Below are positions 26,208-49,619 of a DNA stretch of 64,000 nucleotides, piece after piece. This DNA comes from Patescibacteria group bacterium (lineage in GTDB: Bacteria > Patescibacteriota > Microgenomatia > CAYGWK01): the NCBI GenBank assembly GCA_049322615.1, contig JBMORX010000003.1:3328-67327 (forward strand), written 5' to 3'. Positions within the stretch are counted from its first letter, which is position 1, and every line of letters begins with the position of its first letter. A model generated the notes under the pieces. That model saw only the letters and a list, made by a program, of their open reading frames with translations. It was not told where the DNA came from and searched no databases. The position numbers and the translations under genes were made by a program.

Positions 26208-28634
26208 TTAGGAGGGAAGATAAGCTGGGACAAAACCAGCAGGTTTTCTAGGCAAAGAGATTTTCTTTTCTTTTTGCTTAAGAAGGACGACTTTTAAAGC
26301 CTCCCCAAGTTCGGAGACAAAAACAAATTTAATATCTTTTTTAACCTTACTTGGAACATCTTCAAGATCCTTTTTATTTTCTTTCGGCAAAATCAAAACT
26401 TTGAGTCCTGCCCGGTGAGCGGCAATAACTTTTTCTTTAACTCCCCCAATCTCCAAAACCCTGCCCCGAAGAGTAATTTCTCCGGTCATGCCAACATCCC
26501 GACGGGTGGGAATTTTCGTCAAAGCCGAAACCAAAGCTGCCGCCATGGCTATCCCGGCTGATGGTCCGTCCTTGGGCACGGCTCCTTCAGGAACATGAAT
26601 GTGAACATCTAAATTCTTTGAGAAATTTTCTCGAAGACCCAAGGTTTCCCAATGACTTCTGGCAAAAGAAAAAGCTGCCTGAGCTGATTCCTTCATTACT
26701 TCTCCTAAATGTCCGGTTAAGACAAGATTGCCCTTCCCAGGCATCAAAGCCGCCTCAATGAAAAGAATCTCTCCCCCAGCCTCAGTCCAAGCCAGTCCAG
26801 TGGCCATCCCTACCTCATTTTTCTTCTCCGCCAAGGTTGAGGAATATTTCTGCGGACCTAAAAACTTTCGGGTCTCTAGCATATCAATCTCTTCTTTCAC
26901 TCTTTTTCCTTCTGCTTTTTTCTTTGCCACCTTTCGCAAGATTGTCGCGAGCATTCGCTCAAGTTCCCGAACCCCTGCCTCTCTGGTATAGCGGCGAATT
27001 ACCTCATAAAGTGCCCTAGAGGTAATTTTTATTTTCTCTAGACCATGGGCTTTAACCTGCTTTGGCCAAAGAAATTGCCTGCCAATATTAAATTTTTCTT
27101 CTTCGGTATAGCCGGGAAAGCTGATAACTTCAAGTCTATCTCGAAGGGCTGGAGGGACGGTGTCTAAAATATTACCAGTACAAATAAACATTACCTCAGA
27201 TAAATCAAATGGGACCTCAAGATAATGATCAGAGAACTCTTTATTTTGTTCAGGGTCTAAAGCCTCCAGGAGTGCAGCCGATGGGTCGCCCCGAAAATCA
27301 ATTCCGACTTTGTCAATTTCATCAAGCATAAAAACAGGATTTTTGGTCCCGGCGTTTCTCATTCCCTGAATTATTCTGCCCGGTAAAGCGCCAACATAAG
27401 TCCGCCTGTGTCCGCGAATTTCTGCTTCATCTCGAATTCCTCCCAAAGAAATCCGAATAAATTTTCGTCCTAACGCTTTAGCGATTGATTTTCCGATTGA
27501 AGTTTTTCCCACCCCCGGAGGTCCGATAAAACAAAGAATTGAGGGCGTCCCGACTTCCTCCCTCTGCGTTTTTGCGCCCGCAAGAGTTTTGCGTCTTTGC
27601 GTTTTCAGCTTCATCACCGCCAAGTACTCAACTACCCGTTCCTTTACTTTCTTTAAACCATAGTGATCTTGTTCTAAAATCTTGGCTGCTCGACTAATAC
27701 TAGTATTATTTGGGGTTGCTCGAGTCCAAGGCATAGAAGTTATCCAATCAAGCCAGTTTTCAATGTACGGTCGTTCAGGAGACATAGGAGGCATTTGGGC
27801 AAAACGAGAAAGTTCTTTCTCAACTTTTTTTCTCGCCTCCAAAGGCAAACGGGACTGGCGAATTTTTTGTTTGAATTCTCTAACTTGTTCGTCTTCCTCT
27901 CCGCCAAGTTCTCCAAGCTCTTTCTCAATTGTTTTCTTCCGCTCCCGCAAGACTGCTTCTTTCATCTCTTTTTCAAACCGGACTTGGGTTTTAGTGGCAA
28001 TTGAGCGTTCAAGTTCTAAAATTTTGATTTCATGGTTAAGATATTCAGCCACTTTATTAAGCCTCTGGGAAACAACCGCCAAGTCCAAAAGTCCTTGTTT
28101 TTCCTCAGTTTTTAAGTCTAAACTTGAAGCAATTTGGTCAGCCAACTCCGCCGGAGAAACCCCAGAGGAAAGTCTCATTAAAACCATAATATCGATTGGT
28201 TTCCCAAGATTAAAAGCCTTGCGATATTGATTAATTAAATGACTTGACAAAGCCTTAACTTCATCCGATTCCTCGATAATTTCCGGAACTTCACTTACCC
28301 TAACCAAAATAAAGGGGTCGGTTGAGATTACTTCCTCAAGCCTTATCCGACCTACTCCTCGGGCAATTGCCGTGACGCTTCCGTCTATCTCAAGGGTATT
28401 TTCTAAAACAACAAGGGTGCCAATTTGATAAAGATCTTCTTTTCCTGGCTCCACTACCCTTGGGTCTTTCTGGGTAAAGACTGCCAAAAGTCTTTCGGCT
28501 GAACCACTAAAAGCAGCCTTGACGGCACTGTTTGACCGTGGTCGACCAAAAGTAAGAGGGACCTCGGTGTAGGGAAAAACCACACTGTCTCGAAGAGCTA
28601 CTGCAGGAATAATTTTTTCTGATTGGTCTGTCAT
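26208..28634 (-). CDS. lon: ATP-dependent Lon protease
   Basis: It has the Lon N-terminal domain, AAA+ Walker A (GPPGVGKTS) and the C-terminal Ser-Lys protease domain ([20 protein letters not shown]). Confidence 0.9.
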
Positions 28635-28678
28635 AGTGAGTTTAGACTTCGGCTGAGCTCAGTCGAAGCCCCGAACCA

Positions 28679-28705
28679 TTAGCAGTCTATCACATTAATT
28701 GCTAA
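28679..28705. promoter_or_regulatory. CIRCE-like inverted repeat TTAGCA-N15-TGCTAA (TTAGCAGTC-N9-AATTGCTAA) in the lon leader; candidate HrcA operator
   Basis: It has the geometry of the CIRCE consensus TTAGCACTC-N9-GAGTGCTAA. The outer hexamers are perfect and the inner triplets diverge. It lies 45-70 nt upstream of the lon start. Confidence 0.5.
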
Positions 28706-28749
28706 AAAGCAATAGGTATTCGTAACACATCTAAATTCCGCCAGTCTCA

Positions 28750-28832
28750 CACGAATTTACACGAATCTGGCGACCACGTATCTTAGTTCTACCCCAAAAG
28801 GCAGTTTGGTCGCCTCACGAATTAACACGAAT
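28750..28832. promoter_or_regulatory. Two pairs of CACGAAT heptad direct repeats (CACGAAT-TTA-CACGAAT at 28750-28766, CACGAAT-TAA-CACGAAT at 28816-28832) in the lon upstream region
   Basis: I read them directly. The heptad-N3-heptad architecture resembles CtsR-type operators (GGTCAAA-NAN-GGTCAAA), but the sequence differs. Confidence 0.4.
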
Positions 28833-28969
28833 TTTGAGCCACCTTCAAGATGGTGAGGGCACAACTTTTGCGCCGAGTTTAATGTGACAGGGGACGTCTG
28901 ACGTCCCAGGCTTGCGCCATCCGAAAACAGCGCCACCAGACTCCTGGAATCTCTATCTAAGCAAGCCGT

Positions 28970-28988
28970 GTCCCGATTTAATCGGGAC
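28970..28988. terminator. Hairpin GTCCCGAT-TTA-ATCGGGAC downstream of the L,D-transpeptidase gene
   Basis: It is a perfect 8-bp inverted repeat with the same core as 14690 and 49379. Confidence 0.5.
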
Positions 28989-29035
28989 GTCATCTCTAAA
29001 CTCAAGCAACAAGTTCGTGCCCGAACCAAAACAAC

Positions 29036-29692
29036 TCATTCATGAATCACAATCCTTGTTCCGGGATTATCTCCAGTTGCCCTAATAGCGTTTAAAGCAT
29101 CAACCGAAGGGGTTGTCCAGTAAAAGAGTCTCTCTGCTACTGGTGTTGGCAAATTAACACATCCGTGACTCATTGTCCGACCAAAATTATTATGCCAATA
29201 GGTTCCATGAAGCCCAAAACCATTATGAAAATACATGATATAGGGAACATTGGGTAGATAATAATAACTATGGGTACCTTTTTCGCCTCCCTCCATTTTA
29301 GCGTACTTAAACTTGCTCCAGATGCGAAATTCACCGGTAATGGTTGGTGTCCAAGGTTTGCCCGAGGAAATCAAAGTCTCCAGAAAAAGATTATTTCCCT
29401 CCCAGGCGCGAAGTTTTTGTTCGGATAAATCAACCTCAATCCATTTTTCTACCCCGGTTTTCTCACCTAAAACTTTTCTCTCGCTTGGCGAAAGCTCCCA
29501 CCTGGCTAAAGGTGCTTGAATTTTCTTTCCTTCAAAATAGGCTTGGGTCTCCCCAAACTGAAATTCTCCAGTTCCTTGACAATAACAGCCAGGTTTCTCA
29601 AGCAGAAATTTCTGGCTTGAGAAAAATAAAACAAAAACAGCCATAAATAAGGCCGTCGGAAGAAGAATTAAGAAAAAATTTTTCTGTTGCAT
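29036..29692 (-). CDS. L,D-transpeptidase (YkuD family) with an N-terminal membrane anchor
   Basis: It has the catalytic motif SHGCVNLP and an N-terminal TM helix. Confidence 0.75.
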   Translation of the reverse strand: MQQKNFFLILLPTALFMAVFVLFFSSQKFLLEKPGCYCQGTGEFQFGETQAYFEGKKIQAPLARWELSPSERKVLGEKTGVEKWIEVDLSEQKLRAWEGNNLFLETLISSGKPWTPTITGEFRIWSKFKYAKMEGGEKGTHSYYYLPNVPYIMYFHNGFGLHGTYWHNNFGRTMSHGCVNLPTPVAERLFYWTTPSVDALNAIRATGDNPGTRIVIHE

Positions 29693-30838: not shown

Positions 30839-30912
30839 TGGCTGCCCAGCCTCGATTCGAACGAGGATTAGATGGTCCAGAGCCATCTGGCCTACCGTTA
30901 GCCGACCGGGCA
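30839..30912 (-). tRNA. tRNA-Gln (anticodon CUG), CCA encoded
   Basis: I folded it manually. The acceptor is UGCCCGG/CUGGGCA, the anticodon stem is GAUGG/CCAUC with loop CUCUGGA, the T-arm is CCUCG-UUCGAAU-CGAGG, the discriminator is G and the 3' end is CCA. Confidence 0.75.
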
Positions 30913-30975: not shown

Positions 30976-31239
30976 ATGCTCACCAGAAAAGATTTAAAAG
31001 AGGAAATTGAAATTGCCGTTGCTCATATCAGTCAGGTGCTTACCAAGGCGCTTGCAACTTTGGCGACCAAAGAAGAACTCGCTAAAGTTGAAACGAGACT
31101 TGAGAATATTGAGACAGATGTTAGGGATATCAAAAGAGACGTCAGGGATTTGAAAGCGGACACGCCAACTGCTAAAGAATTTCAAAACCACGAAAAGAGA
31201 ATTACAAACTTAGAAAAACGGTCTTCACTTCTTAATTAG
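30976..31239 (+). CDS. Small coiled-coil protein (paralog of 7611-7901), start at the internal Met
   Basis: It reads MLTRKDLKEEIEIAV... with a heptad-rich tail. The tracked ORF begins inside the tRNA. A TTGACT-N18-CAAAAT promoter-like sequence abuts the ATG. Confidence 0.45.
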   Translation: MLTRKDLKEEIEIAVAHISQVLTKALATLATKEELAKVETRLENIETDVRDIKRDVRDLKADTPTAKEFQNHEKRITNLEKRSSLLN

Positions 31240-32514
31240 AGAAATTACTTCCCGGAGTCGTTTTAGGGTTTTTTCGCGACCGAGAATTTCGACTGAATCA
31301 GTAATTGGAGGAGTTATCTTCGAACCAGCAATGGCGACTCGGAAATTCATAAAAAATTCTCCGGTTTTCCAGCCTTTTTCTTTAACAAGTTCTTGGAGAA
31401 CTTGCTCCAGATTTTTCTTATCCCAGGTTTTTAGTTTTTCTAAAACTTCAAGTGCTAAAGACAACTGTCCTTTGGCATTTTTTTCAAAAAGTTTTTTCTC
31501 AACCTTTGGTTCTTTAAAGAAAAATCCAGCTAAGACAGAATAATCTGAAAGTTTATTTAATCTTTCTTTAACTAACAGGATAGTTTGATTAATTAAAGTG
31601 GGGCTTGCACCTTTCGGAGCAAATGGTTTAATTAATTGAAGTAGCTGGCTATCAGATTTTTTTCTGATATAAACACCGTTTAACCAATCAAGTTTTTGAA
31701 AATTAAAAATTGGGGCAGTGGTCACCACTCTTTCAAAACTAAAAAGTTTTATAAATTCCTCTAAAGAGAAGATATCTTTTTCTTCTGGATGAGACCAGCC
31801 TAAAAGGCTCAAGAAATTAATCAAGGCTTCGGGTAAATAGCCTTGCTCTTGATACCAAGATAAAGCAATTGGGTTTTCTCTTTTTGAGATTTTTGATCGA
31901 TCAGGATTTCTTAGAATTGGCATGTGGGCAAAAATTGGCGGTTTTTCACCTAATGCTTGATAGACCAGGAGCTGACGCGGAGTATTTGAAATATGTTCTT
32001 CGGCTCTGATAACATGGGAAATCTTCATCAGGAGATCATCAACCACACAAGCAAAATTATAAGTTGGAAACCCATCTGATTTTAACAAAACAAAATCCTC
32101 AATATTTTCATTTTTGAAAGAGATTTTTCCTCGAACCAAATCATCCCAAGAAATTTCGCCAGTTTTGGGGACCCGAAGACGAACCGCTCCTTCATCTTCA
32201 AAGGCAAGTTTTTTATTCAAAAGTTTCTGGCAAGTTTTTTGGTACAAAGAAAGACGCTCTGATTGGCGATACGGACCAAAAGGACCACCAATATCGGGTC
32301 CTTCATCATAGAGCAAACCTAGCCATTTTAGACCATCGAAAATTGCCTTCTCCGCTTCAGGAATATGGCGCTTAACATCAGTGTCTTCAATCCGGAGAAT
32401 AAACTTGCCTTTATTTTGGTGGGCAAAAGCAAAATTAAAAAGTGAAATATAAGCAGTCCCAACATGGGCAAAACCCGTTGGCGAAGGAGCAATTCTAACT
32501 CTAACTTTCTTCAT
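31225..32514 (-). CDS. gltX: Glutamyl-tRNA synthetase (short, probably non-discriminating type)
   Basis: It has the HIGH motif (PSPTGFAHVG) and the KMSKS-like KISKR motif. It lies near tRNA-Gln and tRNA-Glu. Confidence 0.85.
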   Translation of the reverse strand: MKKVRVRIAPSPTGFAHVGTAYISLFNFAFAHQNKGKFILRIEDTDVKRHIPEAEKAIFDGLKWLGLLYDEGPDIGGPFGPYRQSERLSLYQKTCQKLLNKKLAFEDEGAVRLRVPKTGEISWDDLVRGKISFKNENIEDFVLLKSDGFPTYNFACVVDDLLMKISHVIRAEEHISNTPRQLLVYQALGEKPPIFAHMPILRNPDRSKISKRENPIALSWYQEQGYLPEALINFLSLLGWSHPEEKDIFSLEEFIKLFSFERVVTTAPIFNFQKLDWLNGVYIRKKSDSQLLQLIKPFAPKGASPTLINQTILLVKERLNKLSDYSVLAGFFFKEPKVEKKLFEKNAKGQLSLALEVLEKLKTWDKKNLEQVLQELVKEKGWKTGEFFMNFRVAIAGSKITPPITDSVEILGREKTLKRLREVISLIKK

Positions 32515-43599: not shown

Positions 43600-44495
43600 T
43601 TTCTCACCCCCTTTCTTCTTTCTTCAATTTGATTCCAGATGACTAACAAGGGGGCGGCGGTGAAGGTTGAAGAATAAGTTCCGGAGATGGTGCCGATTAA
43701 CAAAGCGGCAACAAACCACTTAATAGTTACCCCTCCTAAAAGTAAAAGAGCAATTAACATAAAAATAATAGTTAGGGAGTTATTCAAAGACCGCGAGAGG
43801 GTCTCGGTGACGGCTTTGTTAACTAAATCCACAAATGCTGTTTGGGGCAATCTTTTTTGCGATTCCCGAATTCGGTCATAAACAACGACCGTATCATGAA
43901 CCGAGAAAGAAAGAATCGTCAACATGGCGGTCACAAATAAAGTATCAATTTCAACGTTCAAGAAATGTCCCAAAAGAGAAAAACTTCCCAATAAAACAAA
44001 GGAGTCATGAAACATTGCCAAAATGGCGCAAATTCCAAACTTAGGGTCTTTGAAAGCCCAGGCAACATAACCTAGAATAAATCCAGCAGCCAAGATTATG
44101 GCAATCAAAGTTTTTACTAAGAGTTCTCGTCCCAAAATCGGACCAACGGTTTCAAAGCGAAGTTCTTGGGGCATTTCTTCAAATTTCTCCGCCAAGGCGG
44201 CTTTGATGGTTGAAACATCGTCTTTGGTGATTGGTTTTAAGCGGATTAAAACAGTTTTGTTGCCGGAAATTTGAACTGAAGAAACATCAAAATTTTTATT
44301 TTTTATCGTCTCCTCAATTGCTAAATTGCTAAATTGCTCAATTGCTGGCTTCTCGAATTTCAATTCGAGTAAAGAACCGCCGGTGAAATCAATTGAGGGT
44401 TTAAGACCAAAGAGGATAAGAGAAAAAATTCCCGGCACCAAAACCAGGGCGGATAAAAGAAAATACAGCCATTTAAATTTCATAAAATTCAACAT
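43596..44495 (-). CDS. secF: Protein-export membrane protein SecF
   Basis: It has six TM helices and the SecD/F family topology. It lies downstream of secD. Confidence 0.85.
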   Translation of the reverse strand: MLNFMKFKWLYFLLSALVLVPGIFSLILFGLKPSIDFTGGSLLELKFEKPAIEQFSNLAIEETIKNKNFDVSSVQISGNKTVLIRLKPITKDDVSTIKAALAEKFEEMPQELRFETVGPILGRELLVKTLIAIILAAGFILGYVAWAFKDPKFGICAILAMFHDSFVLLGSFSLLGHFLNVEIDTLFVTAMLTILSFSVHDTVVVYDRIRESQKRLPQTAFVDLVNKAVTETLSRSLNNSLTIIFMLIALLLLGGVTIKWFVAALLIGTISGTYSSTFTAAPLLVIWNQIEERRKGVRK

Positions 44496-44525
44496 CCGAA
44501 TACTCCCGAATTTAAATAATCCGAA

Positions 44526-45863
44526 TTAATCCGAATTTTTACCTCGATAAAGTGCTCTCAATAGTGTTCTTGTCACCACGATACCCGTAAACAGGGAAAT
44601 AAATATCCCCAAACTTAAAGTTAAAGCAAATCCCCGGACCATGCCCGAGACATTTAAGAAATTCCAATTAAAAGGATTAAATAAAATAAAACAGGTAATT
44701 AAAGTACAAATATTGGCATCCCGAATTGAATCCCAAGCCCGACCAAAACCAAGTTCTAACGCTTGCTGCCAGGGTTTGCCTGAGCGAATTTCTTCTTTCA
44801 TTCTTTCAAAAATTAAAATATTTGCGTCAACTGCCATCCCGACGGAAAGGATAAATCCGGCAATTCCAGGCAAAGTTAAAGTTACCGGAATAAGTTTATA
44901 TAAAGCCAGCGTTATTAAACCATAAATTATTAAAGCCAAATCTGCTAAAAACCCAAGTTTTCCATAATATGCCCACATAAAACCAACAACCATTAAAAGT
45001 CCAACTAAACCTGCCCTCATACTTCTTTGAACCGACTCGACTCCCAGAGTAGCGCCAACATTTCGTTGTTCAATAATTTTGATGGGGACGGGAAGAGCTC
45101 CAGCATTAAGCTTAATTGATAAATCGCGGGCGCCATCAACGGTAAAATTTCCTCTAATAATAGCATCGCCTGAAGTAATTGCCTCCTCAACTACTGGAGT
45201 TGAAATTGGTCTACCATCAAGATAAATAGCCACGATTTTGCCAACATTTCTCAAGGTTATATCAGCAAACTTTTTCGCTCCCTCGGATGAGAACTCTAGA
45301 CTAACGATCGGTTGCCCTGTATTTTGGTCAAATCTAACCTGAGAGCGTTTTAAATCTTTGCCAGTTAAATCAGTGGGCTTAAAACCAGCTGCGGGTGTTG
45401 CCTCTTTCTGTTCCCAAAATTCAAGTTGAGCTGTCGTTCCGATTAAATCAATAGCACGATTGATATCCTTGACTCCCGGCAGTTCAACAACTAAACGATA
45501 GTCTTCACCCCTCTTTGAGGTTTGGACCGTTGCTTCAGTTACCCCAAAGAAATTAACCCGACGTTCGATATTATTCTTGGCTGCCTCTATCGCCGAATCT
45601 CTATCTTCTGGGCTAATTTTTTTTATCTCAGCTTGAAAAACCAAATGTGTTCCCCCGGCTAAATCCAGTCCTTGTTTAAGGTGAAGTTCTCGCTTTATTT
45701 TTAAATTACCCAAGGAAAAATCAAGGTCCGGACCAGAAATTTTCGTGTCAACGGAAAATTTTCTCCAAGAGAATTTAATTGGAAAATCTTTGGGGAGATC
45801 GATAATAAACGAGATAATGGTCAAAAAAATGATAAATAAGAGGAGCAGTCTTTTTTGTTTCAT
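44526..45863 (-). CDS. secD: Protein-export membrane protein SecD
   Basis: It has a large periplasmic loop and six TM helices, with the conserved C-terminal RND-like core. Confidence 0.85.
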   Translation of the reverse strand: MKQKRLLLLFIIFLTIISFIIDLPKDFPIKFSWRKFSVDTKISGPDLDFSLGNLKIKRELHLKQGLDLAGGTHLVFQAEIKKISPEDRDSAIEAAKNNIERRVNFFGVTEATVQTSKRGEDYRLVVELPGVKDINRAIDLIGTTAQLEFWEQKEATPAAGFKPTDLTGKDLKRSQVRFDQNTGQPIVSLEFSSEGAKKFADITLRNVGKIVAIYLDGRPISTPVVEEAITSGDAIIRGNFTVDGARDLSIKLNAGALPVPIKIIEQRNVGATLGVESVQRSMRAGLVGLLMVVGFMWAYYGKLGFLADLALIIYGLITLALYKLIPVTLTLPGIAGFILSVGMAVDANILIFERMKEEIRSGKPWQQALELGFGRAWDSIRDANICTLITCFILFNPFNWNFLNVSGMVRGFALTLSLGIFISLFTGIVVTRTLLRALYRGKNSD

Positions 45864-48435: not shown

Positions 48436-48493
48436 TTTACCACATTATTTTATCCCGGTTCCACACCTTGTGTCAACCCCGTATAATGCTTGC

Positions 48494-48598
48494 TTGCTCC
48501 CGTGGTCTACGTCCACGCGTCGCAAGAGCGCATATACGGGGCAAGCCCCTCAAATAAAATGAAGCCTCCCCGCCCATGGAAGGGCGGGGTTTCTCTTT
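48494..48598 (+). ncRNA. Candidate small structured RNA with a TATAAT -10 box (48482-48487) and a strong intrinsic terminator (CCCCGCCC-AUGGAA-GGGCGGGG + UUUCUCUUU)
   Basis: The segment is GC-rich relative to the genome. A 5' helix pairs GCUUGCUCCCGU with ACGGGGCAAGC. The terminator stem is at 48568-48589 and the U-tract at 48590-48598. No ORF is present. Confidence 0.45.
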
Positions 48599-48607
48599 CG
48601 AGAAAGG

Positions 48608-48624
48608 TCCCGACTAAGTCGGGA
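48608..48624. other. Hairpin TCCCGAC-TAA-GTCGGGA (variant of the CCCGATTTAATCGGG family)
   Basis: It is a 7-bp inverted repeat that I read directly. Confidence 0.4.
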
Positions 48625-48697
48625 AGGCTGCGATTCTTGCTTCATTCATCTCCGCCCACAGAGGGGCAGAGTATTCTGAAGCGCGAAATAAAATCTC

Positions 48698-48731
48698 TTA
48701 CCGAAATTAGACACGTGTACAATTTTGTCAA
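48698..48731. repeat. Sixth, half-degenerate copy of the 34-bp palindromic element (CACGTG-TACA-ATTTTGTCAA; left arm decayed)
   Basis: The right arm and the CACGTG core are intact. The left arm matches only the AAAT part. Confidence 0.45.
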
Positions 48732-48766
48732 CAGGGGTTTTGAAAAAACTTGATGCCTGTGGTATT

Positions 48767-48809
48767 ATTCGGATACATTCGGATAATTTTCATTCGGATG
48801 AATTCGGAT
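48767..48809 (+). repeat. Four direct repeats of ATTCGGAT phased at 10, 15 and 10 bp (iteron-like or tandem regulator-binding sites)
   Basis: The copies are at 48767, 48777, 48792 and 48802, so spacing is about one helical turn. Confidence 0.5.
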
Positions 48810-48869
48810 GTCCAGAAAAACTCGCCAGGAAAAAATTATTGCCGACCTCCGCCGAAGACTGGAAGCAAC

Positions 48870-49015
48870 CAGAAATAGAAGTGAGGGTGAGAAGTGGGAC
48901 GTGGGTCGAGAAGTGAGGGTGAGTCGTGAGGAATTAAAAAACTCCCCGCCCCAATTTCCCATCTCTCAACCCACTTCTCACTTCCCATCCTCACCCTCAA
49001 TCTCTACTTCTTACA
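48870..49015. repeat. Long imperfect inverted repeat built from GAAGTGAGGGTGAG/GTGGG modules (left arm 48870-48925, right arm 48945-49015)
   Basis: A direct repeat AGAAGTGAGGGTGAG occurs at 48876 and 48912. The complement modules CTCACCCTCA, CACTTCTCACTTCCC and CCCACTTCTC lie in the right arm. The ORFs through this region are probably spurious. Confidence 0.45.
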
Positions 49016-49235
49016 TTAAAAAAGACTTGACAAAAACCTTTCTCTTGACAATACTTGCAATTAGCCTTGAGCTTGTGCTATACTTCCTAACTAGGATAGG
49101 CAAGATTTAAAAACTTTACTCTGCCCGACTAGAATTATAATCGTAGCTTAGGCAATGGCGAAAAAGGAGGCTTGCCTCTCCGAAGCTCGCCTACGCCAAA
49201 GGCTACGGCGAGCGAAGGGAGGTGAGAAAGATTTA

Positions 49236-49379
49236 TGGCAACCATGTACTGTGTTAAGTGCCGCGCCAAGAAAGACGTCGCCAACCCACAGAGAGTGACG
49301 ATGAAAAATGGCAAGCCGGCAATGAAAGCCTCTTGTCCAGATTGTGGCACAACCATGTTCAAGATTGGTGCCGCGTAAT
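49236..49379 (+). CDS. Small zinc-ribbon protein (47 aa, CxxC...CxxC)
   Basis: It reads MATMYCVKCRAKKDVANPQRVTMKNGKPAMKASCPDCGTTMFKIGAA. A GGAGG SD lies 9 nt upstream and a hairpin follows. It is not in the ORF track because it is under 60 aa. Confidence 0.5.
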
Positions 49380-49395
49380 CCCGATTAAATCGGGA
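49379..49395 (+). terminator. Hairpin TCCCGAT-TAA-ATCGGGA directly after the zinc-ribbon gene stop
   Basis: It has the same core as 14690 and 28970. Here it is clearly at a gene 3' end. Confidence 0.5.
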
Positions 49396-49470
49396 AACGC
49401 GGCTAAAACGTTAAATCTTTCAAGATTTTTTACGTTTTGCCGCGTAATCCTGCCTAAACACCAACTCTCT

Positions 49471-49519
49471 TTGACAGTTCGTCACGACTTTTATGGAACT
49501 ATCGTTACGAAACTGTCAA
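49471..49519. repeat. Palindromic element variant TTGACAGTTCGTCACGA-N13-TCGTTACGAAACTGTCAA (TTGACA/TGTCAA termini as in the 34-bp family)
   Basis: The arms are imperfect 17-bp inverted repeats. A further hairpin lies at 49399-49448 (CGCGGCTAAAACGT / ACGTTTTGCCGCG). Confidence 0.4.
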
Positions 49520-49565
49520 CCTCGCCGAAGCCTATGGCGAAGGCGGGTTAGTATCAAAGAGAATT

Positions 49566-49599
49566 AAAAAACCCCGTTCTATTTCTGGAGCGGGGTTTT
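49566..49599. terminator. Bidirectional intrinsic terminator AAAAAACCCCG-N13-CGGGGTTTT
   Basis: The GC stem is flanked by an A-run and a T-run, so it can serve the plus-strand zinc-ribbon locus and the minus-strand ZIP gene. Confidence 0.6.
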
Positions 49600-49619
49600 G
49601 GTGAGATAAAATTTAAAAA

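Follow-up and report, generated by a model that had tools for sequence, protein, structure and literature searches.

The controlling inverted repeat of chaperone expression (CIRCE), the operator of HrcA, is in its canonical form a 9-bp inverted repeat, TTAGCACTC-N9-GAGTGCTAA. The operator of CtsR (A/GGTCAAA-NAN-A/GGTCAAA) is instead a direct repeat of two heptads with a 3-bp gap, placed over the promoter or start site. In the Mollicutes, control of the dnaK, clpB and lon promoters by CIRCE is documented (PMC5138195). The locus considered here is lon, the gene of the ATP-dependent Lon protease, in a 64,000-nt window of Patescibacteria DNA (the window being the whole stretch that was analysed, GC content ~40%, to which all positions refer unless a locus is named), and in particular the 401-nt intergenic region (IGR; 28635-29035) that separates lon from the next gene upstream, ykuD. 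An earlier note on this DNA had seen a CIRCE-like element and two CtsR-style heptad pairs in the IGR. Taken as a whole, the region is probably best explained as an HrcA-type promoter-operator at lon, with a heptad module beside it that belongs, as a local copy, to a repeat family and is not specific to lon.

The lon promoter and its operator

The operator occupies 28679-28705. It reads TTAGCAGTCTATCACATTAATTGCTAA on the + strand and, in the sense of lon (the - strand), TTAGCAATT-AATGTGATA-GACTGCTAA. Reading of the sequence confirms the TTAGCA-N15-TGCTAA reported earlier at this position: the outer hexamers and the 27-bp CIRCE geometry are exact, and the inner positions have diverged. The window contains a single exact occurrence of the pattern, where 100 shuffles predict 0.00. 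Of the 18 positions of canonical CIRCE, 15 are matched by the form TTAGCAATT-N9-GACTGCTAA; the three that differ are inner ones, and the right arm is one base off GAGTGCTAA. (Three mismatches are borderline by the measure of the Mollicutes, in which functional CIRCE is reported to tolerate at most two mutations.)

This inverted repeat is laid across the spacer, the -10 element and the start site of a sigma-70-type promoter. The extended -10, TGaTAGACT (28684-28692, - strand), is made up of the hexamer TAGACT at 28684-28689 and the dinucleotide TG at 28691-28692; the -35, TTGCTT (28707-28712, - strand), stands 17 nt upstream of the -10 and is weaker than the TTGACA that most relatives carry. 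All close relatives, as well as 74 Microgenomates lon loci, keep the TTGACA-N17-TAGACT architecture around the repeat. The repeat begins in the 17-nt spacer and continues through the -10 to approximately +1, with the -10 hexamer contained in its right arm. The consensus of the 74 sites is cTTGACA-n-TTAGCA-n10-TAGACT-GCTAA (or, written as an operator, TTAGCA(g/a)(t/a)(t/c)-N9-GACTGCTAA). Little variation is seen among them in the two outer operator arms, in the -35, or in the -10 with its TG extension; the columns of the -10 have frequencies T100 A98 G82 A100 C76 T100, and those of the TG 84% and 75%.

What is shared with the described CIRCE/HrcA systems is the 27-bp geometry, the perfect outer hexamers, the overlap with a sigma-70-type promoter and the placement before protease and chaperone genes (lon, clpB and hsp20). 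Two features differ. The left inner triplet is degenerate throughout the Microgenomates lon class, and the right arm also serves as the -10 hexamer, which fuses operator and promoter into one compact design.

Transcription would start near 28677, to judge from the conserved -10, and this would give lon a 5' untranslated region (UTR) of ~43 nt (28635-28677, - strand); the corresponding distance in relatives is ~5-40 nt. The '400-nt lon leader' of the earlier note is wrong because the conserved promoter, itself ~45 nt upstream of the ATG, puts the start ~43 nt from it, and the remaining ~350 nt would, on this placement of the promoter, be DNA upstream of it and not leader. (For annotation this is a warning: a long structured IGR before a stress gene need not be the leader of that gene.) Within the 5' UTR lies a 28-nt palindrome, GGGCTTCGACTGAGCTCAGCCGAAGTCT (~28645-28672, - strand), which had been missed earlier. 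Leader alignment marks it as an insertion relative to two related loci, L210 and L082; it folds into a hairpin of -16.1 kcal/mol and could affect the translation or stability of lon. In three other relatives (L208, L083 and L211) the lon start codon comes 4-10 nt after the -10/operator, which would leave the lon mRNA with little or no leader.

Distribution of the operator and a probable heat-shock regulon

The GTDB relatives of lon (one-genome-per-species contigs) are all Microgenomates/Patescibacteria of the candidate phyla radiation (CPR), at identities no higher than 63%; nearer Lon homologs, at 72-87% identity, come from metagenome assemblies. When the 401-nt IGR is set against 80 GTDB Microgenomates lon loci, the 27-bp element is its only conserved part, and an operator stands 30-60 nt before lon in ~70 of the 80 genomes. 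In 846 kb of CPR DNA, at one mismatch or fewer, all operator matches precede lon except three, of which one precedes an Hsp20 gene, one precedes a ClpB gene and one is a chance match in coding DNA. At the first of these loci (L036, ~408-890, - strand; Microgenomates) the lon-type promoter-operator lies before a gene confirmed as Hsp20. At the second (L069, 2331-2360 and 5120-5150; Pacebacteria) the promoter-operator lies before a gene confirmed as ClpB, and this clpB is directly upstream of lon.

The earlier proposal of a CIRCE-like heat-shock operator at lon has therefore held up: the element is widely conserved, it is embedded in a conserved promoter, and it recurs at other chaperone promoters. 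Its absence from such promoters, which the note had named as refuting, was not observed. HrcA-type repression is well supported because the same promoter-operator precedes hsp20 and clpB in other CPR genomes, and HrcA is very likely the binder, as far as an operator can identify its repressor. The CIRCE reading is right in substance: a known operator is met here in a new lineage and in a new variant, one that is fused with the promoter. lon would be transcribed from the sigma-70-type promoter that lies inside the inverted repeat; a dimeric repressor bound there, HrcA being the likeliest, would block access to the -10 and the start site and would come off under protein-folding stress; and lon would join hsp20 and clpB in a small CPR heat-shock regulon. 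CIRCE-type heat-shock control would thereby extend to the uncultured, genome-reduced CPR/Microgenomates, with lon, hsp20 and clpB defining a minimal regulon.

The heptad module upstream of the promoter

The two heptad pairs noted earlier are confirmed by reading of the sequence: CACGAAT-TTA-CACGAAT at 28750-28766 and CACGAAT-TAA-CACGAAT at 28816-28832, 66 bp apart from start to start. In the sense of lon (- strand) the promoter-proximal pair is ATTCGTG-TAA-ATTCGTG and the distal pair is ATTCGTG-TTA-ATTCGTG. At one mismatch or fewer, the window holds these two tandem heptads against 0.03 expected. A fifth heptad, which the note had missed, is inverted (28718-28724; ATTCGTA on the + strand, TACGAAT in lon sense) and lies 5 nt upstream of the -35. 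Between the pairs is a hairpin (28769-28814, - strand), formed by GGCGACCA (28769-28776) and TGGTCGCC (28807-28814) with an inner CTGCC/GGTAG stem. (Of the hairpins that had been placed between the pairs, this one is indeed there; the other, GGGACGT-CTG-ACGTCCC at 28891-28907, is beyond the distal pair.) Together these parts form a 130-nt module that abuts the -35, at positions of about -40 to -155 relative to the start, in which four direct ATTCGTG copies, arranged as two 10-bp-phase pairs around the hairpin, are joined by one inverted copy centred at about -45.

The module has a patchy distribution. Of eight lineages with Lon identities of 72-87% only two carry it, the window and L083-85 (three assemblies of one population, counted as one lineage); it is absent in L082, the nearest relative of the window, and in L086, L087, L208, L210 and L211, and none of the 80 GTDB loci has it upstream of lon. 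Control of lon does not, in general, include the module. Where it is present it is well kept. Both heptad pairs are identical in L083, the inverted copy is conserved there, and the block as a whole is ~88% identical with its five heptads and both 3-nt spacers intact; between the same two sequences lon is 78% identical and the fourfold-degenerate sites of lon 52%, and no alignment is possible over the adjacent 200 nt. Most simply, the module would have been inherited vertically under constraint and lost in L082, and by this pattern of conservation the module is probably functional in some sense. The open reading frame (ORF) 28757-29029, suspected earlier of being spurious, does appear so: it overlaps the heptad module, and its upstream two-thirds are unalignable in L083.

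A cross-phylum family of phased heptads

The family to which this module belongs was traced with the pattern ATTCGTG-N3-ATTCGTG-N(35-65)-ATTCGTG-N3-ATTCGTG in metagenome contigs. Since the pattern specifies 28 bases, essentially no chance matches are expected; at least 120 metagenomic contigs contain it, one of them judged by its protein names to be from Omnitrophota. The figures that follow on GC content, spacing, runs, orientation and neighbours are those among the matches listed from these contigs. GC content ranges from 27 to 68%. The spacing of copies peaks at 10 nt (599 cases) and at 9 nt (130 cases), most runs comprise two copies (224) or three (216), and a G usually follows the last copy. 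The most constrained heptad positions are T2, T3 and G5, and ATTCGTA is the commonest degenerate variant. Arrays are intergenic, show no orientation bias toward the flanking genes, and adjoin a heterogeneous set of neighbours (polysaccharide synthesis, toxin-antitoxin pairs, gatB, pilin). They may be amplified in tandem, up to 76 copies in 8 kb, and in some loci every intergenic gap is punctuated by them. A sub-family of 13 metagenomic modules has the same order as the window, that is, a heptad pair, a CGACC..GGTCGCC hairpin and a heptad run. With two 10-nt-phased doublets and one inverted ATTCGTA, all intergenic, the window fits the family definition, and by its sequence the lon-upstream module is a local copy of the cross-phylum phased ATTCGTG family.

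The arrays often stand in inverted orientation on either side of a small gene of the GxxExxY type (PDDEXK_3, TIGR04256; ~125 aa; nuclease fold), the one family that is conspicuous among the neighbours. There are 14 such genes in 719 kb of heptad loci, all of them touching arrays, versus none in 782 kb of control CPR DNA. In the typical layout three inverted copies (CACGAAT) precede the start codon and three direct copies (ATTCGTG) follow the stop, and the gene with its inverted arrays is often inserted between conserved genes, for example gatA and gatB (the cassette loci are L088-L207, which are metagenome contigs, together with L212 and L213). Cultured bacteria have variants of the same layout, with CTCTGTG in a Bacteroides finegoldii plasmid and ATCCGTG-type heptads in Treponema saccharophilum. 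The layout also occurs with another repeat: a Microgenomates 23S_rRNA_IVP (PF05635) gene (L216, 18280-18860), situated between a 195-aa gene and serS, is flanked by inverted ~9-nt-phased AGGA repeats. The window copy is a 'solo' module, tblastn and hidden Markov model searches against the six-frame translation having found no GxxExxY gene or remnant in the window or the IGR, nor any other degraded gene in the IGR.

The family appears to be undescribed: it has no Rfam match, and searches of the searchable literature for the heptad and for GxxExxY/PF13366/TIGR04256 found none. A phage origin is not indicated, the four-heptad pattern being present in one of 2.9 million viral contigs. We know of no fit with integron attC sites, with repetitive extragenic palindromes (REP) and their associated RAYT transposases, with Tn7/Mu-type ends, with Chi, with DnaA boxes, or with Pho, OmpR, Spo0A or PurR boxes. 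Comparison with mobile or mobile-like repeats (REP and bacterial interspersed mosaic elements, miniature inverted-repeat transposable elements (MITEs), and the intervening-sequence (IVS) cassettes of 23S rRNA) is closer, in that all are short intergenic repeats, found in either orientation, sometimes amplified and patchy among relatives, and inverted heptad arrays bracket small GxxExxY and 23S_rRNA_IVP ORFs much as in IVS-type cassettes. On the other hand, REP elements are species-specific palindromes, whereas the heptad is a phased, non-palindromic 7-mer conserved across phyla, and no transposase or target-site duplication has been identified for the heptad family.

Phased ATTCG repeats occupy three more loci in or near the lineage. 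L015 has a single ATTCGTG pair 10 nt upstream of a TTGACA box. In the window, ATTCGGA-TTA-ATTCGGA ... ATTCGGG-AGT-ATTCGGA (44495-44536, - strand) fills the junction between the secD stop and the secF start, its last copy overlapping the ATG; as RNA these copies pair through G.U (z = -2.3). Farther along, a promoter-like TTGAAA-N17-TGgTATTAT is followed by four copies of ATTCGGAT (48767-48811, within 48739-48811, + strand), set 2+2 at 10-nt phase and able to form a 16-bp G.U-containing RNA hairpin (-19.3 kcal/mol, z = -4.1). Because they are dispersed at secD/secF and at 48767-48811 in the same genome, phased ATTCG repeats are not tied to lon. The ATTCGGA and ATTCGGAT types are rare in other CPR loci, and their self-complementary copies may be a different kind of element. 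(The second of these repeats lies in 1.2 kb without a long ORF, 48436-49619, which contains a 47-aa zinc-ribbon-like ORF at 49236-49379 and a terminator-like hairpin; a long imperfect hairpin at ~48873-49009 gives matches to miRNA models at chance level only.)

Alternative readings of the operator and the heptads

Several observations weigh against the explanation preferred here, an HrcA-type promoter-operator beside a repeat-family copy. With regard to the operator, hrcA is found neither in the 64-kb window nor on four long contigs searched to 10 kb from lon (a genome-wide search was not made); no hrcA, dnaK or groEL gene is present in the window or in the relatives' loci that were examined (the rest of the genome was not searched); and the left inner triplet is poorly conserved among the 74 lon loci, unlike that of textbook CIRCE. 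With regard to the module, its ~88% identity between window and L083 exceeds by far the 52% of fourfold sites, and it keeps the same position against the -35 in both; such conservation and fixed position look like purifying selection and would fit a role in cis on lon. The differences between the two sequences fall in the predicted loops of the hairpin and leave the stems invariant, as would fit a structure formed by RNA or single-stranded DNA. A search for literature on HrcA in the CPR found nothing relevant. The points concerning the operator would suit a regulator other than HrcA bound at TTAGCA...TGCTAA, or an inverted repeat that is a lineage-specific promoter signature and nothing else, as would the coincidence of the right arm with the -10. 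Yet two-fold symmetry and exact CIRCE spacing are kept in ~70 genomes, canonical arms do occur in some copies (TTAGCACTC in L069, GAGTGCTAA in L211), and the confinement of the element to lon, hsp20 and clpB in 846 kb reproduces the HrcA regulon known in small genomes (PMC5138195). A non-HrcA origin of the repeat is accordingly very improbable.

The points concerning the module bear on the proposal of the earlier note that lon is under dual control, in which a dedicated regulator with CtsR-like architecture would act through the ATTCGTG pairs and the inverted copy, as activator or repressor, in addition to HrcA. The operator half of that proposal stands; the tandem-heptad half does not fare as well, and we regard dual control as unlikely. 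The 7-3-7 direct-repeat geometry is real and non-random (two occurrences against 0.03), the module abuts the -35 with its inverted copy centred at about -45, its conservation in L083 is well above neutral, the single ATTCGTG pair of L015 likewise stands 10 nt upstream of TTGACA, and sites for head-to-tail dimers or trimers typically consist of two or three copies in a row. But six of the seven close orthologous promoters of lon lack the heptads, as does the region upstream of lon in all 80 GTDB loci, and the same heptads adjoin unrelated genes in either orientation, lie at operon junctions and form long tandem arrays in many phyla. As a CtsR operator in particular the module fails on heptad sequence, on position and on conservation at orthologous lon genes: it shares the direct repeat of two heptads and the 3-bp gap, but its heptad does not resemble the CtsR box, the module is upstream of the -35 and not over the promoter, it has four direct copies and one inverted copy around a hairpin, and its heptad is dispersed in many phyla. 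(A CtsR query found no CtsR-like ORF in the window, which is a weak test.) OmpR/PhoB winged-helix sites and MraZ boxes resemble the heptads in having 7-bp sites at 10-bp phase in runs of two or three, and MraZ boxes also in the GTG end; they differ in that heptad arrays number dozens per contig in some organisms and lie beside unrelated genes. MraZ boxes in the literature differ from ATTCGTG heptads, and a search of 120 heptad loci and of the surroundings of the module turned up no MraZ-like ORF (a test of moderate strength). Patchy distribution and promiscuous contexts argue against a dedicated lon regulator, and the position of the module and its conservation in L083 leave room for a local effect on lon in cis.

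The module might also act as RNA or single-stranded DNA, for instance as a structured ykuD 3' or read-through element serving processing, termination or insulation in the manner of an IVS stem, and this we consider less likely still. On either strand the IGR as a whole does fold much more stably than its shuffles (z = -5.0 and -5.9), the invariant stems between window and L083 are compatible with it, elsewhere inverted heptad arrays bracket small ORFs like IVS stems, and the related ATTCGGAT loci fold as G.U-containing hairpins. The heptad-module segments by themselves, however, are at shuffle level (z = -0.9 and -0.1), so that the hairpins of the distal flank and the 5' UTR palindrome probably account for most of the fold signal of the IGR. 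An RNA stem is disfavoured because copies of ATTCGTG cannot pair with one another and because the module folds like its shuffles; in inverted arrays, moreover, the spacers are often non-complementary, which points to heptads that are conserved but not pairing. There is neither an orientation bias toward genes nor an Rfam match, and the two independent sequences available provide no covariation. The lon promoter, moreover, lies downstream of the structured region, which places that region outside the transcript from this promoter. Known structured RNAs were looked for in the 400 nt and rejected: Rfam gave no relevant match at E<=1 or at gathering score (tmRNA, RNase P, 6S, riboswitches), and ARAGORN called no tmRNA.

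As to what the module does, phased ATTCGTG heptads would serve as a binding array for a putative sequence-specific protein on double-stranded DNA. A protein on duplex DNA is favoured over an RNA stem because of the helical-turn phasing, the runs of two or three and the lack of strand bias, and further because the 7-mer is conserved but the spacers are not, even between the arms of inverted arrays. On these features of the sequence a protein-binding array is a tentative reading, possible rather than probable; candidate binders are a GxxExxY-type protein or a host factor. A more specific version is doubtful: that the heptads would be the recognition array of a sequence-specific protein (the candidate being a GxxExxY PD-(D/E)XK protein), of a cross-phylum class (CPR, Omnitrophota and others, with variant heptads in Bacteroides and Treponema) that marks the borders of selfish cassettes, and would have been retained at the -35 of lon, where it modulates a heat-shock gene. 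The heptad family is the more unexpected by-product of the analysis, with an identical 7-mer, a 10/9-bp phase and a statistical link to GxxExxY genes, and if it is a protein-binding array or a mobile-cassette end it would provide a first functional handle on the very large orphan GxxExxY family.

The ykuD flank and neighbouring genes

The part of the IGR beyond the module (28833-29035, - strand) is the hairpin-rich 3' flank of ykuD. Its sequence is not conserved, neither L083 nor any other locus having a similar one. Besides GGGACGT-CTG-ACGTCCC it includes the hairpin GTCCCGATTTAATCGGGAC (28970-28988). Within the window the only self-similarity of the IGR is the recurrence of a short hairpin, TCCCGATTnAATCGGGA, which is found at four sites (14692, 28971, 48608 and 49379; one of them a variant copy), each downstream of a gene end. 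This recurrence past gene ends suggests 3'-end or terminator-type elements, here belonging to ykuD, and TCCCGATTnAATCGGGA may be a terminator or REP-like element shared across the genome. A hairpin like TCCCGATTnAATCGGGA is also seen in the ykuD-lon spacer of L087.

lon itself (26208-28634, - strand; 808 aa) is identified by its ORF and translation and by Pfam matches to LON_substr_bdg, AAA and Lon_C on an identical product; it has homologs of up to 86% identity. The upstream gene ykuD (29036-29692, - strand; 218 aa) encodes a YkuD-family L,D-transpeptidase (Pfam PF03734, E = 1.3e-21) on the same strand. Farther upstream, ARAGORN calls a tRNA-Gln(CTG) at 30839-30912 (- strand), adjoining a class I Glu/Gln-tRNA synthetase gene (31225-32514); this tRNA is not among the matches at the Rfam gathering threshold for the whole window. 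The gene order ykuD-lon-greA is syntenic in all close relatives. In two of these an inserted gene separates lon from greA: an IS200-type Y1 transposase gene in L087 (5556-6245) and a GIY-YIG gene in L082 (5605-5886), and the lon-greA neighbourhood is on this account prone to small insertions.

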